NCBI GenBank assembly: GCA_963804345.1
Contig: CAWDPX010000004.1
Coordinates: 320,181-384,180, forward strand
Source: an uncultured Verrucomicrobiae bacterium
GTDB lineage: Bacteria; Verrucomicrobiota; Verrucomicrobiia; Limisphaerales; UBA11358
Direction: 5' to 3'
DNA: 64,000 nucleotides
Part shown: one piece after another, positions 3,077 to 59,736 of the stretch
Layout: every line of letters starts with the position of its first letter
Position numbering within the stretch: the first letter of the stretch is position 1
Position numbers and translations under genes: made by a program
Notes under the pieces: model-generated
Told to the model about the DNA's origin: nothing
Seen by the model: only the letters and a program-made list of their open reading frames with translations
The model's database searches: none

Positions 3077-3835
3077 ATGGGTATCACCCAAATTCAGAAA
3101 TGTTTTGGCTTTTTCTCGTGGCTGGCGTGTTTCCTACTGCTGTTCGTCGGTTGCGGAAAGCCGACAACGGCCTCTCCCCAGAAGGTCGTGACTGACACCA
3201 ACGTCGCGCCGTCCGCGCTGTCCTCGGCAGAAACAGCCGTTCCGGGCCCGGGTCAAAAAGTATGTTTCGCCTGCAAGGGCGAAGGGGCGGTGGCCTGTCT
3301 CGTTCCTGGTTGCAAGGATGGTCAGGTGGATTGTCCGGGACCGTGTCTCAAACTTTCCAAGGGAGTTTGGACCCACACCGACATTGATGGAAAACCTTCT
3401 GATCTCTGGTGGCAGTATTTTAATTCGGCTGACGGTAGCTACACGTTCGGTGTCAGCGAACATCATCTTGGAGAGGTCGTCGTGGTGCAGGATGGCAAAC
3501 CCACGCTCGGCGGCAAATGCAAGATTTGTGGTGGCACCGGCAAGGTGAAATGTCAGGTCTGCCAGGGTACGGGCCGGGTCACCTGCCCGGTTTGTGACGG
3601 CAAAAAGTTTGTCCCCATCGCCTGGACGCCTGTGGATAATCCCTATTTCAACCGCCAACCCGACATCATCCGGTTGGCGGACGGGCGGGTGTTGTTGGGC
3701 CGAATCGCTGCGGAAGCCGGAGAGGACCGAACGATTATTACGCGGGACAAGAAAATCCTGCACGTGAAAGTCGCGGACATCCTGCCCAAAGAAACCACCA
3801 ATTCGGTTGCCACTCAAACTGCGCCGGGCAGTTAA
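3077..3835 (+). CDS. lipoprotein with DnaJ-type CxxCxGxG zinc-finger repeats
   Basis: Lipobox-like LLLFVGCGK. Motifs CFACKGEG and CKICGGTGKVKCQVCQGTGRVTCPVCDGKK. Confidence 0.7.
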   Translation: MGITQIQKCFGFFSWLACFLLLFVGCGKPTTASPQKVVTDTNVAPSALSSAETAVPGPGQKVCFACKGEGAVACLVPGCKDGQVDCPGPCLKLSKGVWTHTDIDGKPSDLWWQYFNSADGSYTFGVSEHHLGEVVVVQDGKPTLGGKCKICGGTGKVKCQVCQGTGRVTCPVCDGKKFVPIAWTPVDNPYFNRQPDIIRLADGRVLLGRIAAEAGEDRTIITRDKKILHVKVADILPKETTNSVATQTAPGS

Positions 3836-4114: not shown

Positions 4115-4741
4115 ATGACCAACAAGGCTTATGCTGACGGCAAAGGCCCGTCCTACATCTACACCCCCGCCGGACGATTGCAGACCCGCACCTGGGCGCG
4201 CACGGTGGGAGGCCAGCCTCTCACAACGACTTATTCGTACGACAACGCTGGTTTGCTATCGGCTATCGGCTATTCGGACGCCACTCTCGGCGTCACGAAC
4301 ACCTTTGACCGTTTGGGCCGGCTCACTCAACAATCAACCCTCAACTCTCAACTGAATTCGACTTACAACGACGCGAACGAACCGTTGACCGAATCCTACA
4401 CCGGCGGCCCGCTAAACGGTCTGAGCGTGACAAATAGCTACGACCCGCTGCTCCGCCACACCAAACTTTCCCTCATCTCTCAACTCTCAACCCTCAACTC
4501 GACAGCATACGGCTATGACGCAGCCTCGCGTTTACAGAGCGTTTCCGACGGCACAAATACTGCTATTTACAGCTATATTGCGAATTCACCGTTGGTAGGG
4601 AACATTGTATTTCAGCAAAACGGGACGACACGGATGACAACAACGAAACAGTACGATTTCCTGAACCGCCTCACGAGCATCTCCTCTGTCGGAGGGGCCG
4701 AGTTCCACGAGTCCCATTTCTACTTTCAACTATCAATATAA
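4115..4741 (+). pseudogene. RHS/YD-repeat protein, 5'-truncated upstream part (frame lost near 4698)
   Basis: YD repeats (YSYDNAGLLSAIGYSD, AYGYDAASRL). YD-like sequence continues upstream of the ATG to about 4082 (TDPFHDGQRGF) and then stops. The frame is broken by one extra C inside a repeat element. Confidence 0.8.
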
Positions 4742-4813
4742 TCAAGCCAACCAACGTACCCGTGCCGATCTCGGAGGGGCATCTGTCGGAGGGGCGAGTT
4801 CCACGAGCCCCAC
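4687..4813. repeat. two direct half-copies (plus a 10-nt partial) of the TCGGAGGGGCGAG element inside the RHS gene
   Basis: tgtcggaggggCcgagttccacgagtccca at 4687-4717, tcggaggggc at 4771-4780, tgtcggaggggcgagttccacgagccccac at 4784-4813. Confidence 0.6.
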
Positions 4814-4847
4814 TTATTGGGTCTATCAATACGACTCCCTTGGCCAT

Positions 4848-6431
4848 GTGACGAGCGGCAAAAAATACTGGTCCGACGGCACACCCGTCGCCGGACAACA
4901 ATTTGAATACGGCTTCGACGACATCGGCAACCGGAAATCCACGAAGAGCGGCGGCGATCAAAGTGGCGCAGGCCTCCGGCCTGCTTCTTACAGCGTCAAT
5001 AATCTGAACCAATACACGAGCCGTGATGTGCCAGGCTACGTAACCGTCCTCGGCTCGGCCAACTCGAATGCCACCGTGACGGTGAATCTCCAGCGGGCAT
5101 ATCGTTATGGAAATTATTTCCAGGACGAACTGGGCGTGAACAATTCAAGTTCCGCTCTTTGGTTTTCGCTGACCAATCTGGCCGTGTTGAACAACGGAAC
5201 CAATGCGGACATTGTGGCAACGAACACAGGCAACATCTTTCTGCCTATGACGCCGGAAACCTTCGGCTATGACTTGGACGGGAATCTGACGAACAGCGGT
5301 CGCTGGACGGTGACTTGGGATGCTGAGAACCGGGCGACTTCGTTCGCGAGTTTGATCAGCGCACCATCGGCATCAATGAAGAAAGTGGATTGCGCTTATG
5401 ATTTTCAAGGGCGCAGGATTCAAAAGATTGTTTCGACGAATAATGGTTCAGCTTGGATTCCCGTGTCCACGAACCGGTTTGTTTACGATGGTTGGAATCT
5501 GGTTGCCATTCTCGATTCTCAATCCTCCATCCTCGCTTCGTTTCAGTGGGGCAATGACTTGAGTGGTTCACTCCAAGGCGCGGGCGGCGTGGGCGGACTC
5601 ATTTCCATGACCGTTTATGCAGGAACGAATGCAGGGGCGTATTTCCACAGCTTCGATGGCAACGGCAATGTGGCGGCATTGGTGAATGCGGCGAACGGAG
5701 CGATGGCCGCGCAGTATGAATATGACCCATTCCTGGGAATTACCCGCGCTTCGGGCGCGCTGGCGTTCGTAAACCCATTCCTCGGCTCGACCAAGTTCTT
5801 CGATGCAGAGACGGGACTCTATTATTATGGCTATCGGTTTTATGATCCGAGTGCGGGTAGGTGGCCAAACAGAGACCCATTAGAAGAAAGCGGTGGGATT
5901 AATCTATATGGATTTATTGGAAATGCGCCGGAAAACGGAGTTGATTGGCTTGGAGCAGCTCTAAACTCGCCCCCTGGCGGGAACGAATTTGACCAGTGGC
6001 CTTACGCCCAAATTCCACCCAATTTGGGTGTAACATATTCAGCTGGGCCAGATATCACTGAAGCCTTAAAAGCGACGCTAAAACAAGTTGATAAAGACTT
6101 CTGGGCTCATCCCGATAGACAGTGTAAAGCGTGCGATATGTTGAATTTCCCAGGGCCAACATTAACTACTGATGTAACTGGAGCATTGGGTTCTTGGGAT
6201 ATACAACCATTAAAGGATATGGGTCAATCAGGACAACCTTTGGCTGGTGGAAAAGCTGGAACTGGAGATTGGGTGAGGACAGTCCAATTCCGCTATCGGA
6301 GCGGAAAAAGTAAAGTATATTGGGGTGGTGCAGTTAATTATGCACTCTGGGGGAGGGCCAACGAGTTGTGTTATGCTAGATTTCATGCTACAGCGTTCAG
6401 CTTAGAAAGAGCCTTGTGGTTGTTCACTTAA
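4848..6431 (+). CDS. RHS repeat-associated core domain plus AT-rich C-terminal toxin tip (continuation of 4115-4741; frame open from ~4686)
   Basis: GLYYYGYRFYDPSAGRWPNRDPLEESGGINLYGFIGNAPENGVDWLG is the RHS core end. About 160 aa of unrelated AT-rich sequence follow. Confidence 0.85.
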   Translation: MTSGKKYWSDGTPVAGQQFEYGFDDIGNRKSTKSGGDQSGAGLRPASYSVNNLNQYTSRDVPGYVTVLGSANSNATVTVNLQRAYRYGNYFQDELGVNNSSSALWFSLTNLAVLNNGTNADIVATNTGNIFLPMTPETFGYDLDGNLTNSGRWTVTWDAENRATSFASLISAPSASMKKVDCAYDFQGRRIQKIVSTNNGSAWIPVSTNRFVYDGWNLVAILDSQSSILASFQWGNDLSGSLQGAGGVGGLISMTVYAGTNAGAYFHSFDGNGNVAALVNAANGAMAAQYEYDPFLGITRASGALAFVNPFLGSTKFFDAETGLYYYGYRFYDPSAGRWPNRDPLEESGGINLYGFIGNAPENGVDWLGAALNSPPGGNEFDQWPYAQIPPNLGVTYSAGPDITEALKATLKQVDKDFWAHPDRQCKACDMLNFPGPTLTTDVTGALGSWDIQPLKDMGQSGQPLAGGKAGTGDWVRTVQFRYRSGKSKVYWGGAVNYALWGRANELCYARFHATAFSLERALWLFT

Positions 6432-7652: not shown

Positions 7653-9176
7653 TTATGATGCGAGCTGTCGTTGCAACGGAAGCTTCGACTTGCTCCAAGC
7701 TTCGGGCATCACTTCCGGGATTTGCCAGTTGGTCATGCGCGGCAGTCGCGCGAGCACCTCGCGCAGGTAGGCGTAAGGATCCAAACCGCGTCGTCGGCAA
7801 CTTTCAATGATGGTGTAAATGATGGCGCTACGTTCGCCGGCATCGGCATCGCCCACGAACAGCCAGTTCTTTTTGCCGATGGCGGTGGGGCGAATGGCGT
7901 TTTCGACCAGGTTGTTGTCAATCTCCACCCGGCCATCATCAAGATAAACGGTCAACGTGGACCACTGGCCCAAGGCATAATCCATAGCCTGGGCCAGCAG
8001 ACTTTGTGGCAGGTATCGTCCGCTGGCTTTGAGCCGAATCAGGGCGCGTTGGATTCGCTCCACGATGGGGCGGCTGTTACTGGCACGCACGGCTTGGCGC
8101 AACCGGGGACCGGCGCGATGTTCGCGCAAGTCCGCTTCGACCCGGTAAAGGTGCTGGATGTGTCGGACCATCCAGCCCGCCGTTCGCGGCGATGGTTCGA
8201 GGGCGTCGTAAAACTTTCGCCGCACGTGCGCCCAGCAACCTGCCAGTTCAATCGCACCGCCACGACTGTTGGCAAACGCGCGATAGGCCGAATAGTCGTC
8301 GCATTGCAACGTGCCGGTGAAGTTCGCAGGAACGACATGGTCCAAACACGCAGTGGCACGGCTGGTTTCCCAGCGGTAAAATACGTCGCCGCCGGGACGG
8401 CTGCCCGTCCAGAGATAACCTTGTCGCGTTCGTCCATGCCCCGGTTCCAAATAATCAATCGGCGTTTCATCCACCTGGACATAGCCGCCAGCCATCACCC
8501 CAGTGCGAATGTGTTCATAAATTGGCTTTAACCAGTCGGCGGCCAACCCCACCCAGCGGGCCAAAGTCTGCCGGGGCAGGTGTACCCCATGACGTTGGGC
8601 GTAAATTTGTTCCTGCCGGTACAGCGGCAGATGGTCGCAGTATTTGCCCACCAAAATATGCGCCAGCAAGCCGGGCGCCGGCAGGCTCCGATCCTGCAAC
8701 CGTTCGGGCAAGGGTGCGATCAACGGCGCCCGGTCAGCATCAGCACGATGAACGTATTTTCGGCGAATGGTCCGGCGGCGCAAAAAGCGCGCCGGCTCAA
8801 AATCCAGTTGCTCACTCACTTCCTGGCCGATGCAGCGCCAGCTTTGCGGTGCGGCCTTCACCGGTTCGGGATCAATCACTTCTTCCACTACCGGCAGGTT
8901 GTCCGGCAAACGGGGCGTGCGTTCCTTCCGGGAATGACGGACGGAGGTTTGGGATTCTTCGACCCTTGTAACGGCACTGTCCGTGTCGGCCAGGGCTGGC
9001 AGTTGCAGGAGCAGTTCCAGTTGCGCCCGGTCCAGCCGCTCGCTGCTCGACCCAAACACCCGCCGCACCAGCAAGTCTATCTTCTGCCGCAGCAGTTCAT
9101 TCTCCAGGCGCGCTTGCGCCAATGCCTGGCGGCATTCGGCTAACTGGCCAGTGAGTTCTTTTTCGCGCCGCGTCAT
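7653..9176 (-). CDS. tnpC: IS66 family transposase TnpC
   Basis: 507 aa. N-terminal coiled coil (LAQARLENELLRQKIDLL), then CDHLPLYRQEQIY, VQVDETPI, LQCDDYSAYR, CWAHVRRKF. Confidence 0.95.
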   Translation of the reverse strand: MTRREKELTGQLAECRQALAQARLENELLRQKIDLLVRRVFGSSSERLDRAQLELLLQLPALADTDSAVTRVEESQTSVRHSRKERTPRLPDNLPVVEEVIDPEPVKAAPQSWRCIGQEVSEQLDFEPARFLRRRTIRRKYVHRADADRAPLIAPLPERLQDRSLPAPGLLAHILVGKYCDHLPLYRQEQIYAQRHGVHLPRQTLARWVGLAADWLKPIYEHIRTGVMAGGYVQVDETPIDYLEPGHGRTRQGYLWTGSRPGGDVFYRWETSRATACLDHVVPANFTGTLQCDDYSAYRAFANSRGGAIELAGCWAHVRRKFYDALEPSPRTAGWMVRHIQHLYRVEADLREHRAGPRLRQAVRASNSRPIVERIQRALIRLKASGRYLPQSLLAQAMDYALGQWSTLTVYLDDGRVEIDNNLVENAIRPTAIGKKNWLFVGDADAGERSAIIYTIIESCRRRGLDPYAYLREVLARLPRMTNWQIPEVMPEAWSKSKLPLQRQLAS

Positions 9177-10362: not shown

Positions 10363-10697
10363 ACTGGTATTCCTCCAATACCTGCACATAGCCGCTCGGA
10401 TTCCGGTCATCCAAAAGATAGTAAGTAGTGGTTCCAGTTGCAGCGATTGTTTTGCTCACCCGATTCCCGTCCCCGTCATACGTGATAAGGATTGTGCCAT
10501 TGTTCACGTTGATCACGTGATTCATCACGCCGTACTGATAGGAGTTGCCTGACGAGTTGGTTGTGTTGCCGTTGTTGTCGTAGCCATCGCCCGTCAACCA
10601 GTCGTTCGGATTGAATGTGAATGCCTGATTGGTCAGGGTGAGGCTGCCGGTAATATTGGTCCGAGTGGTTCGATTGCCAACGGAATCGTATTTGTAA

Positions 10698-10730
10698 CCG
10701 AGAGATTGGGGACTCGTGTAACCCTCCGAT
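10698..10730 (-). repeat. collapsed copy of the TCGGAGGGGCGAG element
   Basis: Minus-strand read: atcggagggttacacgagtccccaatctctcgg. It matches the argS copy arms but lacks GCGAG and the centre. Confidence 0.5.
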
Positions 10731-11219
10731 AATTTCGTTGGTCAGGCGATAGAGCGGATCGTAGCTCCAAGCGTAATTACGGTTGGCGCCGCTGTTTGTC
10801 TCCAAAAGTGACGTCCGGTTGCCGGTCAGACCAAGCTGGTAGTAGAAACTGGCCAGTGTTCCGGCGTTGAGTTTCCAAACCGAGTTGGTCAACCGGTTGA
10901 GCGAATCGTACTGGCAGAGATTCGTCACGCCGTTACCGTAGCGCATGGTTTGCAGATTGCCAGCCAAATCGTAGGAATACTGCGACAGGCTGGAAGCCGG
11001 TCCTCCGACGTTGGTCAGGCGGTTGAGCGCGTCATACTGATAAACATTCGTCACGCCATTGGCCGTGCTGGACCAGAGATTGGTCAGGTTGCCGTTCGCA
11101 TCGTAGCCGTAGTTGAGCGCCACGCTTAACTGGGCCGGCAAGCCACCACTTTCCATTTTCGATTTACGAGGGTAAAGTTTGCGCGTGACCAGATCGAAAA
11201 TCGCAAACCCAAAATCCGA

Positions 11220-11516
11220 ATGACCCGTCACTGCCACAACTGCGGCGAGGAATGGACGCTGACCGGCCAGCCGGGCCGGGGTGAAACCTGCATGAAATGC
11301 CGGGCCGACCTGCGCGTCTGCCGGAACTGCGCCCACCACGACCCGCGCGCAGCCCAGCAATGCCGTGAGCGCCGGGCCGAGCCGGTGCAGGAAAAGTACG
11401 TGGGCAATTTCTGCGAGTATTTTGAGTTTATCCGCCGAACCTGGACCCCGAAGGCCGGAGACAACCGGCGCGAAGCCGCCGCGCGCGAGCGGTTGAAAAA
11501 ATTGTTTGGCGATTGA
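11220..11516 (+). CDS. small Cys-rich (zinc-ribbon-like) hypothetical protein
   Basis: 98 aa. CHNC..CMKC..CRNC..C pattern. The opposite-strand long ORF here is judged an artefact. Confidence 0.6.
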   Translation: MTRHCHNCGEEWTLTGQPGRGETCMKCRADLRVCRNCAHHDPRAAQQCRERRAEPVQEKYVGNFCEYFEFIRRTWTPKAGDNRREAAARERLKKLFGD

Positions 11517-11532
11517 TGCGCCCGGTTCCGTT

Positions 11533-12537
11533 TCAACCGGAGGCCTTGCCGTCCATTTCGCTGAAAGCCCGCGCACAGGCGGCAATGACGGTTTCAGTCT
11601 CCACGTTGGAAATGATGCGGTCGTTGTTGGGTGACGCGAGCGCCCAGTCCGCGTGTTGATAGGGATGCGGCCGGCCCGGCGCCACGGACTCCATGATCAT
11701 CACCACCCGTTTGCCCATCGCCACAGCCAGATGCAACACCCCGGTATCGCCGCCCAGGGTCAGCGTGGACAGTTTGGCCAGCCCGCCGGTGACAAGCAAT
11801 GGCACGCCGGCCGAGACCGGAAAGCCCGCCAGGCGGGCCGGTTCCAGGGCGGCGCGTTCCGCCGGTCCACCGCCAAACAAGATTTGGACTCCGCGCTGCT
11901 GCCAATGCCGGGCGACCGCCAGATAGCGGTCGAGCGGCCAGTTTTTTTGCGGTGAACTGGTGAAGGGTTGAATAAGGAGGAGGGATGAGGCGGCATTTAG
12001 ATGGTGTGCGGCCAGAAAACTTCGCGCTTCGGCCAGCGCGCCGTCCGGCAGAACGAATTCGTTGAGAATTGTTCCCGAACGCAGGCCGCATTGCTCCAGC
12101 AGCGAGAGATACCAGTCCACGTGATGAATGCGCTCATTGCGCGTCACGCCGCGCGTGTAAGCCCAGCGCCGTCCCTGATGGTACACATTTCCCCAGCGGT
12201 GCGGCGCGCCACTCAACCAGGCCAGCCACGCCGTCTCGCCGTAGCCCTGAAAATCCACGACCCGCGAAAACTTTCCGCGGCGCAACCGGCGAATCAGGGA
12301 AAACGCCTCCGACACAATGGCCAGGGGATTTCCACTTTGAAACCGCGCGCGATTCAGCGTGATGACTTCGTCCACTTCCCGGAAGCCCTGCAACAGCGCC
12401 GCATTCTCGCTGGAAGTGAGAAAGGTGATGGTCGCGCCGGGGAAATTTCCCCGGATCACATGCACTGCCGGCAGGAGGAACAGGATGTCGCCGATGGATT
12501 TAAGGCGAATCAACAGAATGTTCTCGTTACGAACCAT
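11533..12537 (-). CDS. glycosyltransferase family 9 (heptosyltransferase-like)
   Basis: ILLIRLKSIGDILFLLPAVHVIRGNFPGATITFLT; C-terminal GGDTGVLHLAVAMGKRVV. Confidence 0.85.
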   Translation of the reverse strand: MVRNENILLIRLKSIGDILFLLPAVHVIRGNFPGATITFLTSSENAALLQGFREVDEVITLNRARFQSGNPLAIVSEAFSLIRRLRRGKFSRVVDFQGYGETAWLAWLSGAPHRWGNVYHQGRRWAYTRGVTRNERIHHVDWYLSLLEQCGLRSGTILNEFVLPDGALAEARSFLAAHHLNAASSLLLIQPFTSSPQKNWPLDRYLAVARHWQQRGVQILFGGGPAERAALEPARLAGFPVSAGVPLLVTGGLAKLSTLTLGGDTGVLHLAVAMGKRVVMIMESVAPGRPHPYQHADWALASPNNDRIISNVETETVIAACARAFSEMDGKASG

Positions 12538-27914: not shown

Positions 27915-27955
27915 CGCGCCAGCGTCTTGGACTGCGGCAGCCCTCTGCCGCTTTC
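27915..27955 (+). repeat. REP-like element (forward copy) upstream of rayT
   Basis: cgcgccagcgtcttggactgcggcagccctctgccgctttcg. Confidence 0.6.
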
Positions 27956-28015
27956 GCACACACGCGATTGAAATTTGACTTCACTTCCAGCTTCGCTGAC
28001 AGCATCGTCAGGCGC

Positions 28016-28582: not shown

Positions 28583-28592
28583 CCGGTCGGTG

Positions 28593-28697
28593 GAAAAGCG
28601 CCAGAGGGCTGGCGCAGTCCAAGACGCTGGCGCGAGATTTGTGTGACTTTCGTGAACGCGAAGCGTCGTGGAGTGCGGCGGCCCTCCGCCGCTTTTT
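28593..28697. repeat. REP doublet (inverted copy 28593-28634 plus forward variant 28657-28697)
   Basis: gaaaagcgccagagggctggcgcagtccaagacgctggcgcg is the reverse complement of the 27915 element. It is followed 22 nt later by cgcgaagcgtcgtggagtgcggcggccctccgccgcttttt. Confidence 0.65.
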
Positions 28698-31025: not shown

Positions 31026-31146
31026 GCGCTTCAACAGTTTCGAATGTGCGCCCGACGGTGTCAAAAGTCACTCCGAAATGTCGCGCGATTCCGCCAAAAA
31101 CCACGTTGCCGTTGGTGCATGAATGTGGAATGCTTTTCCGGCAGCC

Positions 31147-31995
31147 ATGAGCGAGTTCAAATATGCGTGTCCGGTGTGCGGCCAGCACATGAAGTGCGAT
31201 TCGTCGCAAAGCGGCACGGTGATGGAATGCCCGACCTGCTTCCAGAAGATCACCGCCCCGCAGGCCCCCGCGACAGACGCGCCGAAATTCATCATCACAG
31301 GAACGAAGGTGGGCGAACGTCCCATTCCGACTGCGCCGGTGGCTTCAGGGACGGCAATCCCGCCCGAGAAGGATTTTCCGGCGACGACGTTCGTTCTCAT
31401 TGTTTTGCTTTGTTCGGTGATTGGGGCGGCGTTTCTGTTTCGCGGAAAAATTTTTAAAACGGTTCCAACCAAAACAACCGTCGTCACCAATGCCTCCGGC
31501 ACAGCGTCGAATCCGGCGTCGCGCGGCTCCCCGGCAACTGTGTCGGTTGGGAACATTGCCTTGGGCCGGCAGGCGTATGCCAGCAGCCAGCAGGATGGAC
31601 ACCCGGTTCAAGCTGGCAATGATGGAGACAGCACGACTCGTTGGTGCGCTGACGACGGCAGCATATTGCAATGGTGGGAGGTTGACCTTGGCGCCATGGC
31701 GGTCATCACCAATACCCAGGTTCTGTGGGAACATACTTCCAAATACCAATACAAGGTTGAGGTGTCGCCCAACAACACAAACTGGACAATGGCGGCCAAT
31801 CGAACCACAAATTTCACACTTGCCCAGGCCAGTTCCGATAATTTTTCCGCCACCGGAAGATATGTGCGAATCACGTTCACCGGACTCCCGCCGGGCTCCT
31901 GGGCAAGTTTTTATGAATTCCAGGTGTTTGGTTCCTTCAACAACGGGGGCGATGGCGGATTCAAAACCAATGGTCATTCCACCAATCAACCATGA
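31147..31995 (+). CDS. zinc-ribbon / single-TM protein with extracytoplasmic F5/8 type C (discoidin) domain
   Basis: MSEFKYACPVCGQHMKCD..CPTC; TM FVLIVLLCSVIGAAFLF; NIALGRQAYASS...DGDSTTRWCA...WWEVDLG...YVRITF...FYEFQVFG. Confidence 0.8.
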   Translation: MSEFKYACPVCGQHMKCDSSQSGTVMECPTCFQKITAPQAPATDAPKFIITGTKVGERPIPTAPVASGTAIPPEKDFPATTFVLIVLLCSVIGAAFLFRGKIFKTVPTKTTVVTNASGTASNPASRGSPATVSVGNIALGRQAYASSQQDGHPVQAGNDGDSTTRWCADDGSILQWWEVDLGAMAVITNTQVLWEHTSKYQYKVEVSPNNTNWTMAANRTTNFTLAQASSDNFSATGRYVRITFTGLPPGSWASFYEFQVFGSFNNGGDGGFKTNGHSTNQP

Positions 31996-32134
31996 TTCCC
32001 GGTGGCTGACTCCGATCAAGATCAGGAAACCACCGGCTTGCCAGCAGCCTGAACCCGCCCGAAATTGGTTGGCTTGCAGTCCGGTTTTGAAAATGGGACG
32101 TTAAAGCAGGCAAAATACAGATTCCCCCTGTGCC

Positions 32135-32986
32135 ATGAGCGAATTTAAATATGCGTGTCCGGTGTGCGGCCAGCACATGAAGTGCGATTCGTCGCAAAGC
32201 GGCACGGTGATGGAATGCCCGACCTGCTTCCAGAAGATCACCGCCCCGCAAGCCCCCGCGACGGACGACCCGAAATTCATCATCACGGGCACGAAAGTGG
32301 GCGAACGTCCCATTCCGGCTGCGGTGGCGGATGCGGGCGCGGTGCCCGCATCCGCACCACAGGAAAATTCTTCCCTGCCGGCCATTCTCTTCATCGTCTT
32401 GCTCTGCGCCGCGGCGATGGCACTGTTTGCGTTCCATGGAAGGATTTTCAAGTCCGCCGGCGGACAAGGCGCGTCCGGGACCTCCCAACCTCAACCGCCC
32501 GTCAAGCCGCCGCCACCGCCCAAACCCGTCGTCGTCGCGCCGCCGGCCAATGATGCGAGCTGGAGGTTGGAACTCGCTGCCGCAACGGTTCCTGATTCGA
32601 CGGTGGCGGGGCGTATCCATGGGCGGGATTTTATTTGCGAACGCGCGATTTTGCAGGGGGGCGCGTTGACGTTGCGCAGCGCGACGGATTTGGGCGCGAC
32701 GATCAATTTCGGCGGCGTGCTGCCCGAAGCGCTCGCCGGACAGTCCATCAATGTCGCCACCAACGCGGACAAGGCGGCGCGTGTCGTATTGCGTTGGAAG
32801 GAGGACAACCTGTCCCTGCGGGAAAGTTTCACGAACGGCTACGCGCTGCGGATCGAATTCGGCCAGCTTGCCGGCAATCGCATGCCGGGGAAAGTTTATC
32901 TATGCATGCCGGACACCGAGAAAAGTTACATTTCCGGGAACTTCGATGCCGAAATCCGCAAGCCCAAACCGCCCCGACAACAGTGA
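32135..32986 (+). CDS. paralogous zinc-ribbon / single-TM protein with a different C-terminal domain
   Basis: The first ~63 aa are nearly identical to 31147-31995. Pro-rich linker PQPPVKPPPPPKP, then an unrelated ~150-aa domain. Confidence 0.75.
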   Translation: MSEFKYACPVCGQHMKCDSSQSGTVMECPTCFQKITAPQAPATDDPKFIITGTKVGERPIPAAVADAGAVPASAPQENSSLPAILFIVLLCAAAMALFAFHGRIFKSAGGQGASGTSQPQPPVKPPPPPKPVVVAPPANDASWRLELAAATVPDSTVAGRIHGRDFICERAILQGGALTLRSATDLGATINFGGVLPEALAGQSINVATNADKAARVVLRWKEDNLSLRESFTNGYALRIEFGQLAGNRMPGKVYLCMPDTEKSYISGNFDAEIRKPKPPRQQ

Positions 32987-33113: not shown

Positions 33114-34424
33114 GTGAACATCGAACTGCTCAACACCGGCAGCGAATTGATGCTGGGCCGCGTGCTCAACACGCATCAGCAATGGCTCTGCCGGCGTCTT
33201 GCCGATCTCGGTTATATTGTGACGCGCCAGGTGGCCGTGCCGGACACGGCACCCGACATTCAATCCGCCGTTCGAGAGGCGTTGAGCCGCGCGGATTTGA
33301 TCGTCACCACCGGCGGCCTCGGCCCGACCTCCGATGATTTGACGCGTGATTTGATTGCGCAACTGCTCGGCAAAAAGCTGCGGCTCGATGATGCGGTGCT
33401 CGACCACATCAAAAGGCGTTTTGCGGCGCGCAACCTGCCGATGCCAAAAAACAATGAAGTCCAGGCGCTGGTGCCCGAAGGCGCGCTGGTGCTGGCCAAT
33501 CCGAACGGCACCGCTCCGGGGCTGGCGATGGAAATCAAACCTTCGGAGGGGCGAGTTCCACGATCCCCAAATCCAATTCAAGTTGGGGGCTCGCAGAGCT
33601 CGCCCCTCCGAAAACAATGGCTCATCCTGCTGCCCGGCCCGCCGCGTGAGTTGCGTCCGATGTTCGACAATTTGGTCGTGCCATTGCTCCGGCGCGAATT
33701 CCCGCTGGACGTGCCGTTTGTCTGCCGCACGTTGCGGACGAGCGGCATCGCCGAATCTCTGGTGCAGGAAAAAATTGAAGCGCCACTGAACTCGCTCACG
33801 GCCGCCGGGCTGGGAATCGGCTATTGCGCGCGGACAGGGCAGGTGGACGTGCGATTGTCTGCGCGCGGCGGGGACGGGGGGAAAATTGTCCACGCGGCAG
33901 AAGCGGTCGTTCAAAAAATTCTCGGCGCGCAAATTTACGGTTTTGACGATGAGGAAATGGACTCGGTTGTCGTCCGGCTTTTGACCGGACGAAAGAAAAC
34001 TTTGGCGCTGGCCGAGTCCTGCACCGGTGGATGTATCGCAAATCATGTGACGAATGTGCCAGGCGCATCGGCAGTTTTTCTGGGCTGCTTCGTGACTTAC
34101 AGCAACGAATTAAAGCGGAAATTTCTCGGCGTTCACGCCGAAACGCTGGCGGCACACGGAGCGGTGAGCGAAGCGGTGGCGCGTGAAATGGCCGAAGGTG
34201 CACGCCGGCAAACTGGCGCGGATTTTGCCCTTGCCGTCACGGGCATCGCCGGGCCGGGCGGCGGAACAAAAGAAAAACCGGCGGGGACGGTTTTCATCGG
34301 GCTGGCCGGAGAGTTTGGAACGGTGGTTGAGCGTAAAATGAATCCTTTTGAGCGCGGGACATTCAAGGAAGTCACGGCGTGGCAGGCATTGGAAATGCTG
34401 CGTGTACGATTGGTTTGTTCTTGA
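33114..34424 (+). CDS. cinA: CinA-family competence/damage-inducible protein (MoCF + PncC-type deamidase domains)
   Basis: VNIELLNTGSELMLG (GTG start), VTTGGLGPTSDDLT, NPNGTAPG, LLPGPPRELRPMF, ESCTGG...GVS. The ORF is open from 33078. Confidence 0.9.
   Translation: MNIELLNTGSELMLGRVLNTHQQWLCRRLADLGYIVTRQVAVPDTAPDIQSAVREALSRADLIVTTGGLGPTSDDLTRDLIAQLLGKKLRLDDAVLDHIKRRFAARNLPMPKNNEVQALVPEGALVLANPNGTAPGLAMEIKPSEGRVPRSPNPIQVGGSQSSPLRKQWLILLPGPPRELRPMFDNLVVPLLRREFPLDVPFVCRTLRTSGIAESLVQEKIEAPLNSLTAAGLGIGYCARTGQVDVRLSARGGDGGKIVHAAEAVVQKILGAQIYGFDDEEMDSVVVRLLTGRKKTLALAESCTGGCIANHVTNVPGASAVFLGCFVTYSNELKRKFLGVHAETLAAHGAVSEAVAREMAEGARRQTGADFALAVTGIAGPGGGTKEKPAGTVFIGLAGEFGTVVERKMNPFERGTFKEVTAWQALEMLRVRLVCS
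33542..33612 (+). repeat. palindromic MITE/RPE-like element, full copy, in frame within cinA
   Basis: TTCGGAGGGGCGAGttccacgatccccaaatccaattcaagttgggggctcgcagagCTCGCCCCTCCGAA. Translated as SEGRVPRSPNPIQVGGSQSSPLR. Confidence 0.75.
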
Positions 34425-43460: not shown

Positions 43461-43643
43461 GCGCTGGTGCTGGAAGACAACCCGTCCGCGCCGAGCGGCT
43501 TCGCCTACCCCGCCGTAATCCAGACGGGCAACGGCCTGGTTCACATCACCTACACCTGGAAACGCAAACGCATCAAGCATGTTGTCATTGATCCGGCAAA
43601 ATTGGAATTGCGTCCCTTGCCGCACGGCGAATGGCCGAAATAA
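43461..43643 (+). pseudogene. 3' fragment of a BNR/sialidase-like gene (left copy)
   Basis: [60 protein letters not shown]. No upstream part; starts at the stop of the preceding gene. Confidence 0.55.
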
Positions 43644-43826
43644 TTTTTTGTGCTTGCAGAACGCAGCGGGAAAATCTTTTTACCACGGATGGACACAGAT
43701 GAATACGGATAGGAAAAAGGGATTCAGCAATGCAAACGAGTTTGCCAATGAGTGAGGCCGTCCGGATTTGCTGAATAGACTATCGGTTTTGTTTTAATCC
43801 GTGTTTATCCGTGTCCATCCGTGGTT
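43461..43826 (+). repeat. left arm of a ~360-bp inverted repeat (gene fragment plus long hairpin element)
   Basis: Aligns by eye, at roughly 90% identity, with the reverse complement of 55613-55972. Confidence 0.8.
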
Positions 43827-48858: not shown

Positions 48859-50682
48859 GTGCTGCCGAACAAACAGATTGAACTGAAATTGCAACAAGCC
48901 GTCCGCACGGTCCTGCCGGACGCGGATGCCTCCGCCGTTCTCGCCCGTCCGTGTCCCGATCCGAAATTCGGCGATTACCAAAGCAACGCGCTGATGTCGC
49001 TGGCCAAGTCGCGGAAAATGAATCCACGCCAACTCGCCACCGATGTGCTTTCCAAACTCGACGTCGCTGATTGGTGTGAGAAGGTGGAAATCGCCGGCGC
49101 CGGCTTCCTGAATTTCCGATTGAAAAGCTCCGCGCTCGCCAGCGCACTTCAATCTGCCGTCCGCGGCGAGCACCTTTTTTTCGATAAGACCGCGAGTCCG
49201 CGAACCGCCGTGATTGATTTCAGTTCGCCGAACGTGGCCAAGCCGATGCACGTGGGCCACATTCGCTCCACGATCCTCGGAGACAGCCTCGCGCGCACGC
49301 TGCGTCTGCTCGGCCACCGGGTCATCACCGACAACCACATCGGCGACTGGGGCACGCAGTTCGGCATGTTGCTGCTCGGCTGGAAACATCATCTCAAGCC
49401 CGACGGCTTGAAGGCCGATCCCATCGGCGAGATGGAGCGGCTCTATAAAATGGTCAGCGCCACCAGCGAAACCATGGAAACCGTCCGGGACGCCGCCCGC
49501 CAGGAACTCGTCAAGCTCCAGGGCGGTGATGCTGAAAACCTGAAGATCTGGCACGAGATGATTGCGCTGTCGCAACAGCAGTTTGACACGATTTACGGGC
49601 GGCTGGGCGTGAAGTTCGACCACACCTTCGGCGAAAGTTTTTACAATCCGCGCCTCAAACCGCTGGTGGACGAACTCGTCGCCAGAGGCATCGCGCGCGA
49701 AAGCGAGGGCGCGATTGCCATTTTCTTCGACGATCCGTCCCTGCTCAAGGAACAGCCCGCGCTCATCCGCAAGAGCGACGGCGGGTTCAATTACACGACC
49801 ACGGACCTGGCCACGCTAGCGTACCGGCTGGAAACCTGGCGGCCGGATGAAATCATTTACGTCACCGACGGCCGGCAGCAACTGCATTTCCAGCAGGTCT
49901 TCACCGCGTTCCGCAAATGGCAATCCGTTCTTTCGGAGGGGCGAGTTACACGAGTCCCCAATTCACAAGCCCTTGATTTTTCCGGCGAAAACAGTTTGGG
50001 TCTCTCGGAGCTCGCCCCTCCGAAAAATGAGGCGAAACTGGCGCACGTCTGGTTCGGCTCGATTCTCGGTGAGGACGGCAAGCCGTTTAAAACCCGCAGC
50101 GGCGAGACGGTGAAGCTGTCGGATCTGCTCGACGAAGCGGAGGCGCGGGCCCTTAAACTTGTTTCCGAAAAGAATCCGGCCCTGCCGGAGGCGCAACGCC
50201 GCGAAATTGCGCGGGTCGTCGGGCTGGGCGCCGTGAAATACGCCGATCTGCTGCCGAATCGCCAGAGCGATTACGTATTCAGTTGGGACAAGATGCTGGC
50301 GCTGCAAGGCAACACCGCGCCGTATCTGCAATACGCCTACGCGCGGATTAAAAGTATCTTTCGCAAAATCGGGGAAACTTCCAACTTCCAACCTCCAACA
50401 GCCAGCATCCACTTGGCCGCGCCGGAAGAATTTGCGCTGGCCAAGCATTTGTTGAATTTTGGGCTGACGCTGGAAGCGGTGGCGGAGGAATATCGGCCGA
50501 ATTTTTTGTGCAATTATCTCTACGAACTGGCCGGCAAGTTTACGTCTTTTTACGAAAATTGCCCCGTGCTCAAGGCCGACGACGCCACGCGCACGAGCCG
50601 GCTGGCGCTGTGTGACCTGACCGCCCGGGTTTTGAAGCGGGGTCTGGACGTCCTCGGCATCGAAACCGTCGAGCAGATGTAG
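48859..50682 (+). CDS. argS: arginine--tRNA ligase
   Basis: SSPNVAKPMHVGHIRSTILGD (HIGH), ..TRSGETVKL.., anticodon-binding C-terminus ..GIETVEQM. GTG start. Confidence 0.95.
   Translation: MLPNKQIELKLQQAVRTVLPDADASAVLARPCPDPKFGDYQSNALMSLAKSRKMNPRQLATDVLSKLDVADWCEKVEIAGAGFLNFRLKSSALASALQSAVRGEHLFFDKTASPRTAVIDFSSPNVAKPMHVGHIRSTILGDSLARTLRLLGHRVITDNHIGDWGTQFGMLLLGWKHHLKPDGLKADPIGEMERLYKMVSATSETMETVRDAARQELVKLQGGDAENLKIWHEMIALSQQQFDTIYGRLGVKFDHTFGESFYNPRLKPLVDELVARGIARESEGAIAIFFDDPSLLKEQPALIRKSDGGFNYTTTDLATLAYRLETWRPDEIIYVTDGRQQLHFQQVFTAFRKWQSVLSEGRVTRVPNSQALDFSGENSLGLSELAPPKNEAKLAHVWFGSILGEDGKPFKTRSGETVKLSDLLDEAEARALKLVSEKNPALPEAQRREIARVVGLGAVKYADLLPNRQSDYVFSWDKMLALQGNTAPYLQYAYARIKSIFRKIGETSNFQPPTASIHLAAPEEFALAKHLLNFGLTLEAVAEEYRPNFLCNYLYELAGKFTSFYENCPVLKADDATRTSRLALCDLTARVLKRGLDVLGIETVEQM
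49932..50024 (+). repeat. palindromic MITE/RPE-like element, full copy (93 bp), in frame within argS
   Basis: TTCGGAGGGGCGAGttacacgagtccccaatt...tttgggtctctcggagCTCGCCCCTCCGAA. Translated as SEGRVTRVPNSQALDFSGENSLGLSELAPPK. Confidence 0.75.
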
Positions 50683-50829: not shown

Positions 50830-51648
50830 ATGAAAAAATTTGTTGTATATTTAGCCGTTGTTTTGTTGTTCTCCAGTCCAAGAACTTTCGCCACGACAGT
50901 CTTTTCGGACAATTTTGATTCTTATGTAAACGGGAATCTGGCGGGCACCTCTCAAGACGCATTGGGCCAGGGAACCTGGCGTCAAACCAGCACGTCGGCC
51001 ACAACCCCGATCCAGGTCGTCAATGGCGCAATTGCCCTCGGCTCCTCCGGGCAGGACGTATATTCGCCCTTGACCACGCCGACAATTTTATCCGACGGAC
51101 AAAGCATCTATTTTAGCCTGGCCATTAATGTTTCCGCCGCACAATCCGGCGGCGATTATTTTTTGCATTTTTCCCCGAACGCCGGTAATTCCTCTCTTTT
51201 TTACAGCCGCTTGTTTATCAAATCCGTCACGGGCGGTTTTGAGCTGGGTTGGCTGGGAACGAGCGGCGGAACCGGCCTCCCCACTTATGGAACTTCTGTG
51301 TTGAGTTTGAACACCCCTTACCAGGTGGTCATGGCATATAATTATTCCGCCACCACGCCAACCAATTCCACCGGCGCTGTATATGTCAACCCGACGGATC
51401 CTAATATCGGCAACAACACGGCTTACTTGACGGCCAACTGGCTTACCACCGCAACCCCGGATACCAATTCGATTGCGGCGGTGAATTTTCGCCAGGGATC
51501 GGCCGGAAGTGCTCCAACTTTGACGGTGGATAATCTGGTCGTGGCAACTTCTTTTTCTGACGTGGTGACAGTTCCAGAGCCGTCCACTCTCGTTTTGGCT
51601 GGACTGGGCGGGCTGGCGTTTCTAGGTGCCCTGCGGCGCAAACGCTGA
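50830..51648 (+). CDS. PEP-CTERM sorting-domain secreted protein
   Basis: Signal peptide. C-terminal VPEPSTLVLAGLGGLAFLGALRRKR. Confidence 0.85.
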   Translation: MKKFVVYLAVVLLFSSPRTFATTVFSDNFDSYVNGNLAGTSQDALGQGTWRQTSTSATTPIQVVNGAIALGSSGQDVYSPLTTPTILSDGQSIYFSLAINVSAAQSGGDYFLHFSPNAGNSSLFYSRLFIKSVTGGFELGWLGTSGGTGLPTYGTSVLSLNTPYQVVMAYNYSATTPTNSTGAVYVNPTDPNIGNNTAYLTANWLTTATPDTNSIAAVNFRQGSAGSAPTLTVDNLVVATSFSDVVTVPEPSTLVLAGLGGLAFLGALRRKR

Positions 51649-51700: not shown

Positions 51701-51730
51701 CTCCGCCGGAGGAATGGTGTAACCCGACTG

Positions 51731-51780
51731 CTCGGGTTTTGAAGCTGGGGCTGGACGTTCCCGGCATCAAAATTGTCGAG
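51731..51780 (+). repeat. degenerate relic copy of the argS 3' end
   Basis: 42 of 50 positions (counted by hand) match argS 50624-50673: ctcgggttttgaagctggggctggacgttcccggcatcaaaattgtcgag. Confidence 0.6.
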
Positions 51781-51793
51781 TTGCTGTGTTTCC

Positions 51794-55032: not shown

Positions 55033-55598
55033 AACGCATCGCCGTCTATTGCGGGTCGAACAAGGGCACCCGTGCCGCCTATGCCGAAGCGGCGGAAAAC
55101 CTTGGACGCCAGTTGGCCAAACGCGGAATCGAACTGGTTTATGGTGGCGGGTGTGTCGGACTGATGGGCGTTCTGGCGGACGCCGTGCTTCAAAACGGAG
55201 GACACGTCATCGGCGTGATCCCGCAATCGCTCGTCATCAAGGAGGTGGTGCATGAAAAACTGCCCGACCTGCGCGTGGTGAAAAACATGCACGAACGCAA
55301 GGCGTTGATGGCTGAACTCGCTGACGGGTTCATTGCGATGCCCGGCGGTTATGGCACTTACGAGGAATTTTGCGAGGTGCTCGCTTGGAGCCAGCTCGGC
55401 TATCACCAAAAACCGTTCGGGTTGCTGGACGTGGCGGGCTTTTACCGCAGCTTCCTGGAATTTTTCGACCACGCGACGCGCGAAGGCTTCATCCGTCCCA
55501 AGCACCGCGAACTGGTCCTCGTGGAGGAAGACGTGGAAAAACTGCTGCACCGCCTGGAGACGTTCCAGCCGCCACAGGAAGTGAAGTGGACCAAGTAG
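55029..55598 (+). CDS. LOG-family (TIGR00730) cytokinin riboside 5'-monophosphate phosphoribohydrolase-like protein
   Basis: IAVYCGSNKG, LVYGGGCVGLMG, PGGYGTYEE. 4-nt overlap with trpF. Confidence 0.88.
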   Translation: MKRIAVYCGSNKGTRAAYAEAAENLGRQLAKRGIELVYGGGCVGLMGVLADAVLQNGGHVIGVIPQSLVIKEVVHEKLPDLRVVKNMHERKALMAELADGFIAMPGGYGTYEEFCEVLAWSQLGYHQKPFGLLDVAGFYRSFLEFFDHATREGFIRPKHRELVLVEEDVEKLLHRLETFQPPQEVKWTK

Positions 55599-55612
55599 CT
55601 GCCAAATTTTTC

Positions 55613-55972
55613 AACCACGGATGGAAACGGATGGATTAAAACAAAACCAACAGTCTCTTCAGCAAATCCGGGCGGCCTCACTGATTGGCCAACTCGTTTG
55701 CATTGCCGAACCCCTTTTTCCTATCCGTGTTCATCTGTGTCCATCCGCGGTAAAAAGATTTTCCCACTGCATTTTGCGAGCACAAAAATTTATTTCGGCC
55801 ATTCGCCTTGCGGCATGGGACGCAATTCCAATTTTGCCGGGTCAATGACGACATGCTTGATGCGTTTGCGTTTCCAGGTGTAGGTGATGTGAACCAGACC
55901 GTCGCCCGTCTGGATTACGGCGGGATAGGCGAAGCCGCTCGGCGCGGACGGGTTGTCTTCCAGCACCAGCGC
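55613..55972 (-). repeat. right arm of the ~360-bp inverted repeat
   Basis: Reverse complement aligns with 43461-43826 (gene fragment plus hairpin element). Confidence 0.8.
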
Positions 55973-59636: not shown

Positions 59637-59736
59637 AAACATCGAACATTCAACATTCAACATCGAACATCCAATGAATCGCGGTTGCACCACAACTTGG
59701 ATGTTGGGCGTTCAATGTTGAATGTTGAATGTTCGG
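59637..59736. repeat. long hairpin whose arms are CATTCAA-type heptamer arrays
   Basis: cgaacattcaacattcaacatcgaacatccaa / 22-nt loop / ttggatgttgggcgttcaatgttgaatgttgaatgttcgg. Lies between the proB stop and the mazG start. Confidence 0.75.

Follow-up and report, generated by a model that had tools for sequence, protein, structure and literature searches.

The hairpin repeat in cinA

A 64,000-nt stretch of DNA from an uncultured Verrucomicrobiae bacterium of the Limisphaerales (contig CAWDPX010000004.1, positions 320,181 to 384,180), referred to as a whole as the window, was investigated for a palindromic repeat located inside the gene cinA. The gene (nicotinamide-nucleotide amidase/competence-damage protein; 33114–34424, + strand) starts with GTG and codes for 436 aa. 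The repeat is a 71-nt hairpin at 33542–33612 (+), which lies in frame in cinA, would encode about PSEGRVPRSPNPIQVGGSQSSPLRK, and belongs to a dispersed family designated family A. A preliminary description of this DNA had presented it as an in-frame palindrome whose outer arms pair perfectly over 14 nt and enclose an inner stem; the letters were exactly as quoted there, both stems were confirmed, and the open reading frame (ORF) 33114–34424 stays open through the palindrome.

The hairpin is a doublet of two inverted units, similar in this respect to a REPIN, a doublet of repetitive extragenic palindromic (REP) sequences. The left arm (33542–33571, +; nhmmer 33.5 bits) reads TTCGGAGGGGCGAG-TTCCA-CGATCCCCAAA and is of the TTMYA subtype; the right arm (33583–33612, −; nhmmer 38.0 bits) reads, in reverse complement, TTCGGAGGGGCGAG-CTCTG-CGAGCCCCCAA and is of the CTCYG subtype. 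The variable spacer of 11 nt between them (33572–33582, +) forms the terminal loop. The arms of 30 nt each were 83% complementary, with the outermost 14 nt paired perfectly and an inner stem present. The predicted RNA fold had an energy of −49.1 kcal/mol (z = −8.3; 0/200 shuffles as good), and that of the single-stranded DNA −26.3 kcal/mol (z = −6.6). Rfam at gathering thresholds gave a tRNA as the only match in the whole window, and at E ≤ 1 around the cinA hairpin it gave solely sub-threshold microRNA (miRNA)-precursor hairpin matches, so that no known RNA family fitted.

Protein P0001, near-identical to the window CinA, matched the Pfam families PF00994 (MoCF_biosynth), PF18146 (CinA_KH), and PF02464 (CinA, PncC). 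The phmmer alignments of the window CinA with the solved structures 6mr3 and 4ct8 (E about 1e-58) were split at the insert, query residues 140 and 171 corresponding to chain residues 141 and 148, with about 24 residues extra. In solved CinA structures from other phyla, the connection at this position has 6–8 residues, in agreement with the earlier statement that the two conserved blocks are normally only a few residues apart. A homologous peptide lacking the palindrome was looked for in CinA from unrelated taxa, and these proteins had no such peptide. In an AlphaFold2 model of the window CinA (41-sequence alignment; mean pLDDT, the predicted local distance difference test, 81.8; pTM, the predicted template modelling score, 0.65), the insert was a coil between the adjacent strands 136–141 and 168–173, with pLDDT below 50 at residues 147–165. 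Modelling had been suggested as a check for a surface loop; in the model the insert forms an extended beta-hairpin loop, which in the translated protein would probably be disordered and at the surface. The predicted insert-junction peptides were EIKPSEGRVPR and SPNPIQVGGSQSSPLR for CinA and VPNSQALDFSGENSLGLSELAPPK for the second enzyme described below, ArgS.

A direct repeat of 211 nt, 91% identical, was also present just upstream of cinA (31144–31354 and 32132–32342; 988 nt start-to-start), its second copy overlapping the start of an ORF at 32135–32986.

Further copies in the window

The window was searched with the 14-mer arm at up to 2 mismatches and with an nhmmer arm profile. The 14-mer occurred 5 times compared with about 0.97 expected, and 0/100 shuffles reached 5. 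The expectation that the element has further copies elsewhere was borne out by those in argS and the RHS genes of the window and by those in numerous related genomes.

A second full copy of 93 nt (49932–50024, +) was found in frame in argS, the gene of arginyl-tRNA synthetase (48859–50682, +; 607 aa), to which it adds about 31–32 residues (LSEGRVTRVPNSQALDFSGENSLGLSELAPPK). The alignment of the window ArgS with E. coli ArgRS was interrupted at this insert, query residues 354 and 392 corresponding to chain residues 356 and 363. In addition, the last 71 nt of argS were duplicated with 80% identity (50610–50680 and 51717–51787), and the duplicates flanked an insert of roughly 1 kb with a PEP-CTERM protein gene (50830–51648).

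Solo arms were located in two genes of the RHS/YD type. The gene at 4115–6431 (+), split into ORFs 4115–4741 and 4848–6431, contained a solo arm with one additional C (GGGGCCGAG; 4688–4716, +), the extra base disrupting the frame, and 96–97 nt past it a second solo arm (4785–4813, +), read VGGASSTSP. Deletion of one C of GGGGCCGAG at 4698/4699, within the solo arm, gave a single 771-aa ORF holding two tandem arm-derived units, read VGGASSTSP...YQY. For the break at 4698/4699, a frameshift mutation, slippage, and a sequencing error in the G/C run are all conceivable. In the second YD-repeat gene (10476–11585, −), nhmmer detected a degenerate solo arm without GCGAG (10705–10730, −), in which the deletion disrupts the frame; putting back these 5 nt lengthened the ORF from 369 to 478 aa, and the lengthened ORF showed good YD repeats (IIGGASYTSPQSLGYKYDSVGNR...). 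Since the frame-restoring edits fall within the arms, both RHS paralogues are broken precisely inside an arm. A 507-aa ORF between the two RHS-type genes (7653–9176, −) was IS66-family transposase-like by eye.

Family A in related genomes

Reference genomes, one per species, were scanned with the pattern GGAGGGGCGAG-N40-70-CTCGCCCCTCC, which returned at least 107 loci. Among the matches listed, 78 distinct hairpins of 62–95 nt had the full family-A architecture, and the copy statistics given here refer to these 78. The unit of about 30 nt was 5'-ttTCGGAGGGGCGAG-YTMYR-CGAGYCCC-3', in which the box is either TTMYA or CTCYG, and the hairpin consists of two units inverted about a variable spacer of 10–35 nt. 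The box subtypes usually differed between the two arms of a copy, with fully complementary boxes in 8/78. Outer stem positions 6–17 were 98–100% Watson-Crick paired, positions 7–17 being fixed by the search pattern; the inner stem positions were 85–94% paired. Conservation of the copies ended at ttTC|...|GAaa.

The sources were nearly all metagenome-assembled genomes (MAGs) of Verrucomicrobiota, Limisphaerales or "Verrucomicrobiae" from peat, bog, and soil. Pattern matches in Devosia, Solirubrobacterales, Gemmatimonadales, and Phycisphaerales were discarded as unrelated palindromes that had only the 11-mer in common. The DNA fetched from the relatives, 1.48 Mb in total, was examined for arms, for a Y1/RAYT gene (RAYT, REP-associated tyrosine transposase), and for DDE elements. 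It contained 94 arm pairs and 31 solo arms; the solo arms were mostly partners of arms with more than 1 mismatch, flanks of the Y1 gene, or parts of unrelated palindromes. In 708 kb of loci chosen independently of the repeat, arms were confined to the closest relatives and to the neighbourhood of the RAYT gene. The relatives and their loci are cited below by the handles L and a number.

Copies within genes

Among the matches listed, 37 hairpins had a long open frame through the element. The host ORFs of 20 of them were checked against Pfam; 20/20 were real proteins, and in 18/20 the insert was internal, located within a domain, between domains, or well inside the coding region past the matched domain. 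The hosts with internal inserts were LigA (between zinc-finger cysteines), HemL, RsmA, TlyA, MetH, HisC, PrmC, TilS, MutY, LpxB, PepF, protoporphyrinogen oxidase, a SpoU methylase, a glycosyltransferase resembling monogalactosyldiacylglycerol (MGDG) synthase, a DUF255 thioredoxin-like protein, a helicase, an SDR protein, and a methyltransferase. When cinA and argS of the window were added, as well as orthologous copies in five loci (L025, L039, L044, L069, and L095), at least 25 of the 78 copies were genic. This count omits L071, discarded as a genic RsmA copy on account of a spurious ORF, as well as L019 and L080, whose inserts probably precede the true start codons by a short distance.

The genic copies used all three reading frames. 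According to the frame, the 5' end was read as SEGRV.R.P, GGAS.TSP, or RRGEL.E, and the 3' end as GLAELAPPK, GARVTRPSE, or SSPLRK; the same DNA thus gives different peptides, which argues against a peptide function. Right arms of the TGTAA type contain a stop in one of the frames, and none of the genic copies listed was seen to have such an arm in that frame.

Site occupancy and sequence drift

At the argS site occupied in the window (site 1), a family-A copy was also present in L065, L115, and L162, while most orthologues had a loop of 5 codons (W-H-PEAKT-KL). The extra length was 96 nt in the window, 78 nt in L115, and 81 nt in L162 and L065; the differences of 15 and 18 nt are both multiples of three. 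At a second argS site (site 2), a different family-A copy was found in L025 and L115 and not in the window.

Among the 120 closest CinA homologues (77–100% identical), nearly all had something in the insert loop. The alignment of CinA orthologues, which the preliminary description had named as a check, showed a family-A insert in 33 of the 120, a loop filled otherwise in others, and a short loop in the solved structures. In the DNA of representative loci, the other occupants were a GTAG-REP dimer or unrelated hairpins, including some with tandem-heptamer arms. The cinA loops of L111 and L108 were shorter and resembled decayed, partly deleted family-A copies. That related genomes differ in site occupancy argues for insertion and against an ancestral peptide. 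Where argS or cinA lacked a copy, the site fell in a variable loop, often with other repeats or deletions.

Identity to the window CinA among the 33 family-A orthologues was 80% in the insert and 88% in the rest of the protein. In five orthologous insert pairs, the substitutions were distributed 14:18:24 over codon positions 1, 2, and 3; the codon changes were 13 synonymous and 25 non-synonymous, which indicates little constraint on the insert peptide. In the cinA of L114, two synonymous changes (GAG to GAA and GGG to GGA) disrupted the outer stem without compensation. Hairpin and peptide in cinA showed no sign of upkeep for a function, and to judge from the sequences the pattern fits a tolerated passenger.

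Association with a transposase gene

With RAYT/TIRYT protein sequences as tblastn queries (Additional file 5 of PMC3733652), a Y1 transposase gene was found in the fetched DNA of L056, L081, and L089. In these three loci, the gene is located between a solo family-A arm and a family-A hairpin, and the outermost arms are perfect inverted repeats. The encoded protein has 163 aa, with the HUH motif MPDHLHLF and the tyrosine motif Y-x3-NP-x3-GLV, and it matched the NCBIfam model NF047646 (REP-associated tyrosine transposase) with 84.9 bits (cut-off 80); a Pfam search with it gave nothing at E ≤ 0.01. It had 946 homologues at E ≤ 1e-20, many of them named "REP element-mobilizing transposase RayT" by JGI (Joint Genome Institute). 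In L056, L081, and L089, the terminal ~85 nt of hemN also occur twice, with one copy on each side of the RAYT locus.

Four more homologues (L195–L198; 61–75% identical) were chosen on protein identity alone, and arms were present beside the gene in 4/4; within their 20-kb loci, arms occurred only within about 150 nt of the RAYT gene. L197 had perfect 33-nt inverted arms of the window type, and L196 had a variant arm pair (GGGACGAG/CTCGTCCC) in which both arms were altered and the pairing was kept. A further arm variant accompanied the RAYT gene in L195, and in L198 both arms of a long-spacer doublet were downstream of the gene. Arms thus adjoined the gene in 7 related RAYT loci and were on both sides in 6/7. 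The control RAYTs of L154 and L146 were flanked by GTAG REPs, and that of L097 by a third repeat family. Each of these RAYTs has its own flanking repeat family, which shows that several RAYT-repeat pairs coexist in the clade, and family A is the predicted cognate repeat of its own RAYT clade. The RAYT gene of L097 (about 3216–3821, − strand) has flanking repeats of the TTGGAGTTCAAGCTT... type. The contigs with family-A RAYT homologues (P0121–P0240) were mostly about 1 kb in length, perhaps because the flanking repeats interrupt metagenome assembly.

Target-site duplications were sought in 75 copies at every boundary offset. Direct repeats of at least 3 nt were not enriched at any of them, and a weak 2-nt signal occurred at one offset (19/75). 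A DDE insertion sequence with family-A termini was not found in the 1.48 Mb of fetched DNA. In L060, two opposed copies 3.5 kb apart, considered as a possible transposon, enclosed TPR/ArnT-like and PEP-CTERM proteins and no transposase, and this candidate was rejected.

Origin of the repeat and alternative explanations

The 71-bp sequence is probably a non-autonomous mobile element of the REPIN or TIR-repeat type (TIR, terminal inverted repeat), linked to a RAYT, whose surviving copies in genes are translated and drift almost neutrally; we hold this explanation with good confidence. A RAYT would cut and rejoin the single-stranded hairpin form, and copies would thus be scattered without target-site duplication. 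Copies landing in genes would last only if the frame is kept, no stop codon is introduced, and a permissive surface loop is hit. The cinA and argS copies may be such survivors, translated as disordered loops of 24 and about 31–32 residues, and once inserted they would drift almost neutrally. That the inserts are selectively near-neutral is suggested by the substitutions in the orthologous pairs.

Several points weigh against this explanation. Transposition by the RAYT is a prediction, translation of the inserts is predicted from their open frames, and a Y1/RAYT gene was not found in the 64-kb window, so that the link to the doublets comes from related genomes. A single arm folded no better than shuffles (z = 0.09 for the window and −1.47 for L197). 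The GTAG tag was not found; the flank logo was ttTC/GAaa, and CGTC was restricted to the TTCTCGTCGG subfamily. Roughly a third of the copies sampled were within genes, while REPs are mostly extragenic, and the copy set is biased, since the scan pattern demands two perfect 11-mers. A constant insert length was expected, and the arm-core distance modulo 3 in the genic copies varied (0:11, 1:5, 2:12; a tally that took in 3 copies later reclassified). Consequently, a single fixed insertion unit could not be defined, and keeping of the frame depends on variable junctions or accompanying deletions. Deletions are likewise implied at argS site 2, where the net gain was much below the element size. Clean empty sites were sought at argS and cinA, and their exact junctions were not reconstructable owing to the other repeats and deletions there.

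The ~30-nt arms around a short non-coding core resemble terminal inverted repeats, and the repeat might therefore be a classical miniature inverted-repeat transposable element (MITE), derived by deletion from a DDE insertion sequence, mobilised in trans via its terminal inverted repeats, and leaving target-site duplications. We regard this as unlikely: the flanks of the 75 copies had no direct repeat except the weak 2-nt signal, no longer DDE-bearing element with family-A termini was present in the fetched DNA, and the Y1/RAYT gene was the only gene found bracketed by arms. It is slightly less likely still that the hairpin is a selected cis-acting structure in the mRNA or DNA of cinA, such as a site of translational pausing or RNase action, an attenuator, or a binding site for a protein, and not selfish. 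The very stable fold, the highly conserved outer stem, and the retention of the cinA insert in 33 related protein clusters would agree with such a role; however, the stem conservation is partly a product of the search pattern, and the repeat occurs in at least 20 unrelated genes and in intergenic DNA, in every reading frame. Moreover, the stem is broken without compensation in L114 and reduced to remnants in L111 and L108, and Rfam offered nothing beyond generic sub-threshold miRNA-precursor hairpins.

Very improbable is removal of the insert before the mature protein, as an intervening sequence at the RNA or protein level, the open frame being incidental. Excision would be in line with the compactness and strong structure of the unit, with its precise palindromic ends, and with the coincidence of arms and frame breaks in the two RHS genes. 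However, all 27 copies counted as genic for this comparison were in frame and free of stops, and the orthologous argS copies differed by multiples of three, neither of which would be needed if the insert were excised. The missing stop-frame TGTAA-type arms among the genic copies listed point the same way, no ribozyme or intron match was obtained, and the 24 residues held no intein-like motif. The least credible alternative is a CinA loop that is ancestral or was selected for its function, the palindrome being incidental to the coding of the extra peptide. Nearly all of the 120 closest homologues do have some extra sequence in the loop, but the connection is 6–8 residues long in the solved structures, close relatives fill it with unrelated sequences (including heptamer-arm hairpins and a GTAG-REP dimer), and many other genes contain this DNA, read in other frames. 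We therefore prefer the RAYT-linked mobile element.

Relation to known repeat systems

The REPIN concept is reportedly due to Bertels and Rainey. Family A resembles the REPIN/RAYT and TIRtron/TIRYT systems in having a small HUH/Y1 gene (REP_Tyr_transpos match) bracketed by inverted copies of the repeat, in the dispersed copies being mainly inverted hairpin-forming doublets, often heterodimers of two unit subtypes, and in the lack of a detected target-site duplication. GTAG- and CGTC-tagged REPs were described by Di Nocera et al. 2013 (PMC3733652), together with RAYT-like genes (TIRYTs), some of which are flanked by long inverted repeats forming repeat families; some of these share GGGGWSAS. 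The family-A arm has GGGGCGAG, which matches this motif at 7/8 positions, and inverted arms of about 30–33 nt surround the Y1 gene in relatives (perfect in L197), a layout that would be compatible with a TIRtron. Unlike classical REPs, the single family-A unit is not a self-folding palindrome and has no GTAG, CGTC preceding the arm in one subfamily only; and unlike REPs, by definition mostly extragenic, family A has a large intragenic share. As the single arm does not fold significantly and the GTAG tag is missing, family A comes nearest, among published categories, to the "TIR repeats" of TIRtrons, the doublets being REPIN-like.

According to the same study (PMC3733652), it is in Opitutus terrae (Verrucomicrobia) and Rickettsia conorii that intragenic REPs reach their highest numbers. 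The intragenic GTAG REPs of O. terrae form dimers that encode 20–30 residues in frame (Additional file 3 of PMC3733652), and their host genes are housekeeping genes, including those of DNA ligase, helicases, and uvrA. Family A shares with them the phylum and the in-frame location in housekeeping genes. The peptides differ (GTGVPPV, HGRDARAT, VAGVADP, and VGPALAAG in O. terrae, compared with the six family-A readings given above), the units in O. terrae are short REPs that fold on their own and bear a GTAG tag, which the family-A units do not, and the order is different, the family-A hosts being Limisphaerales-like MAGs.

Rickettsia palindromic elements (RPEs), as summarised in PMC3733652 and PMC10969869 after Ogata et al. 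2000, are palindromic repeats of about 100–150 bp located in frame in many ORFs of obligate intracellular Alphaproteobacteria, with a conserved peptide per family in one frame; RPE-4 and RPE-6 correspond to CGTC REPs (PMC3733652). Family A is like the RPEs in that palindromic repeats lie in frame in many unrelated essential genes, translation being presumed where the fold allows. Unlike them, it has 62–95 nt, free-living soil and peat hosts, three frames, and a RAYT partner, so that the likeness is one of function and not of membership. Bacterial MITEs such as Correia/NEMIS, ERIC, RUP, and Nezha have target-site duplications and originate from DDE insertion sequences (PMC10969869). Family A is similarly short, non-coding, hairpin-forming, dispersed, and at times intragenic with in-frame fusions, but neither target-site duplications (75 copies) nor a DDE parent (1.48 Mb) were found for it. 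The designation MITE/RPE-like in the preliminary description therefore stands for the RPE-like in-frame behaviour and falls for a MITE in the strict sense.

A full-text literature search found no description of family A or of in-frame repeats in Limisphaerales. The earlier remark that such an element was not known to be described holds in that the repeat families are different, and fails in that intragenic in-frame REPs are known in O. terrae (PMC3733652). Family A is new and its RAYT clade is not known to have been described; the kind of system is already known from RPEs and from the intragenic REPs of O. terrae.

Occupants of the loops and their possible turnover

The CinA beta-hairpin loop and the two ArgS loops contained, lineage by lineage, family A, GTAG-REP dimers, or heptamer hairpins. 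In relatives, hairpins or runs of 3–5 tandem heptamers fill these loops; the units are GGAAGAT, GGGTCTG, CAGTCCG, GAACTCC, and AACATCC, and examples of the resulting peptides are ETSNIQHPTSNIQ and DEDGRWKMEDG...PSSILHPPSS. Such repeats were located in the cinA loop of L109, L110, and L112, at argS site 1 of L116, L025, and L155, and at site 2 of most orthologues. The window itself had a decayed AACATCC run at argS site 2 (50374–50399) and an intergenic heptamer-arm hairpin at 59638–59735. GTAG-tagged REP dimers lay in frame in the cinA loop of L113 and at argS site 2 of L154, for example GTAGGGCCGGGCTGCCGCCCGGCC...GGACGCGCGGCAGCGCGTCCCTAC. A tentative idea from which this pattern would follow, and which we rather doubt at present, is that hairpin repeats preferentially insert into or replace existing hairpins, in which case RAYT-type turnover would be a continuing, proteome-wide generator of loop diversity and not a series of rare accidents.

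With family A, selfish DNA within coding genes would reach beyond the reduced, intracellular Rickettsia to Verrucomicrobiota that are free-living and abundant in soil and peat. To our knowledge, no cognate transposase is known for RPEs, and a likely one can be named here, by which the mechanism becomes testable. For annotation, the repeats put low-complexity loops of 20–30 residues in essential enzymes and yield spurious "conserved" peptides, such as SEGRVPRAP and GLAELAPPK. Proteins in which one loop is repeatedly remodelled by a mobile element offer a natural experiment on the tolerance of insertions.

Other repeats in the window

Inverted repeats of 340 nt, 94% complementary and 11.8 kb apart, were present at 43461–43800 and 55633–55972; the pair may represent a composite element or a segment capable of inversion. 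Clusters of short ATCCGTGT-type repeats lay at their inner ends (43682–43825 and 55595–55751). Inverted repeats of 45 nt, 91% complementary, enclosed about 630 nt (27915–27959 and 28590–28634). An imperfect palindrome of 89 nt with short repeats of the CGTCCT/GAGGAC type (2740–2828) was located directly upstream of the window's single tRNA gene, at 2883–2964.

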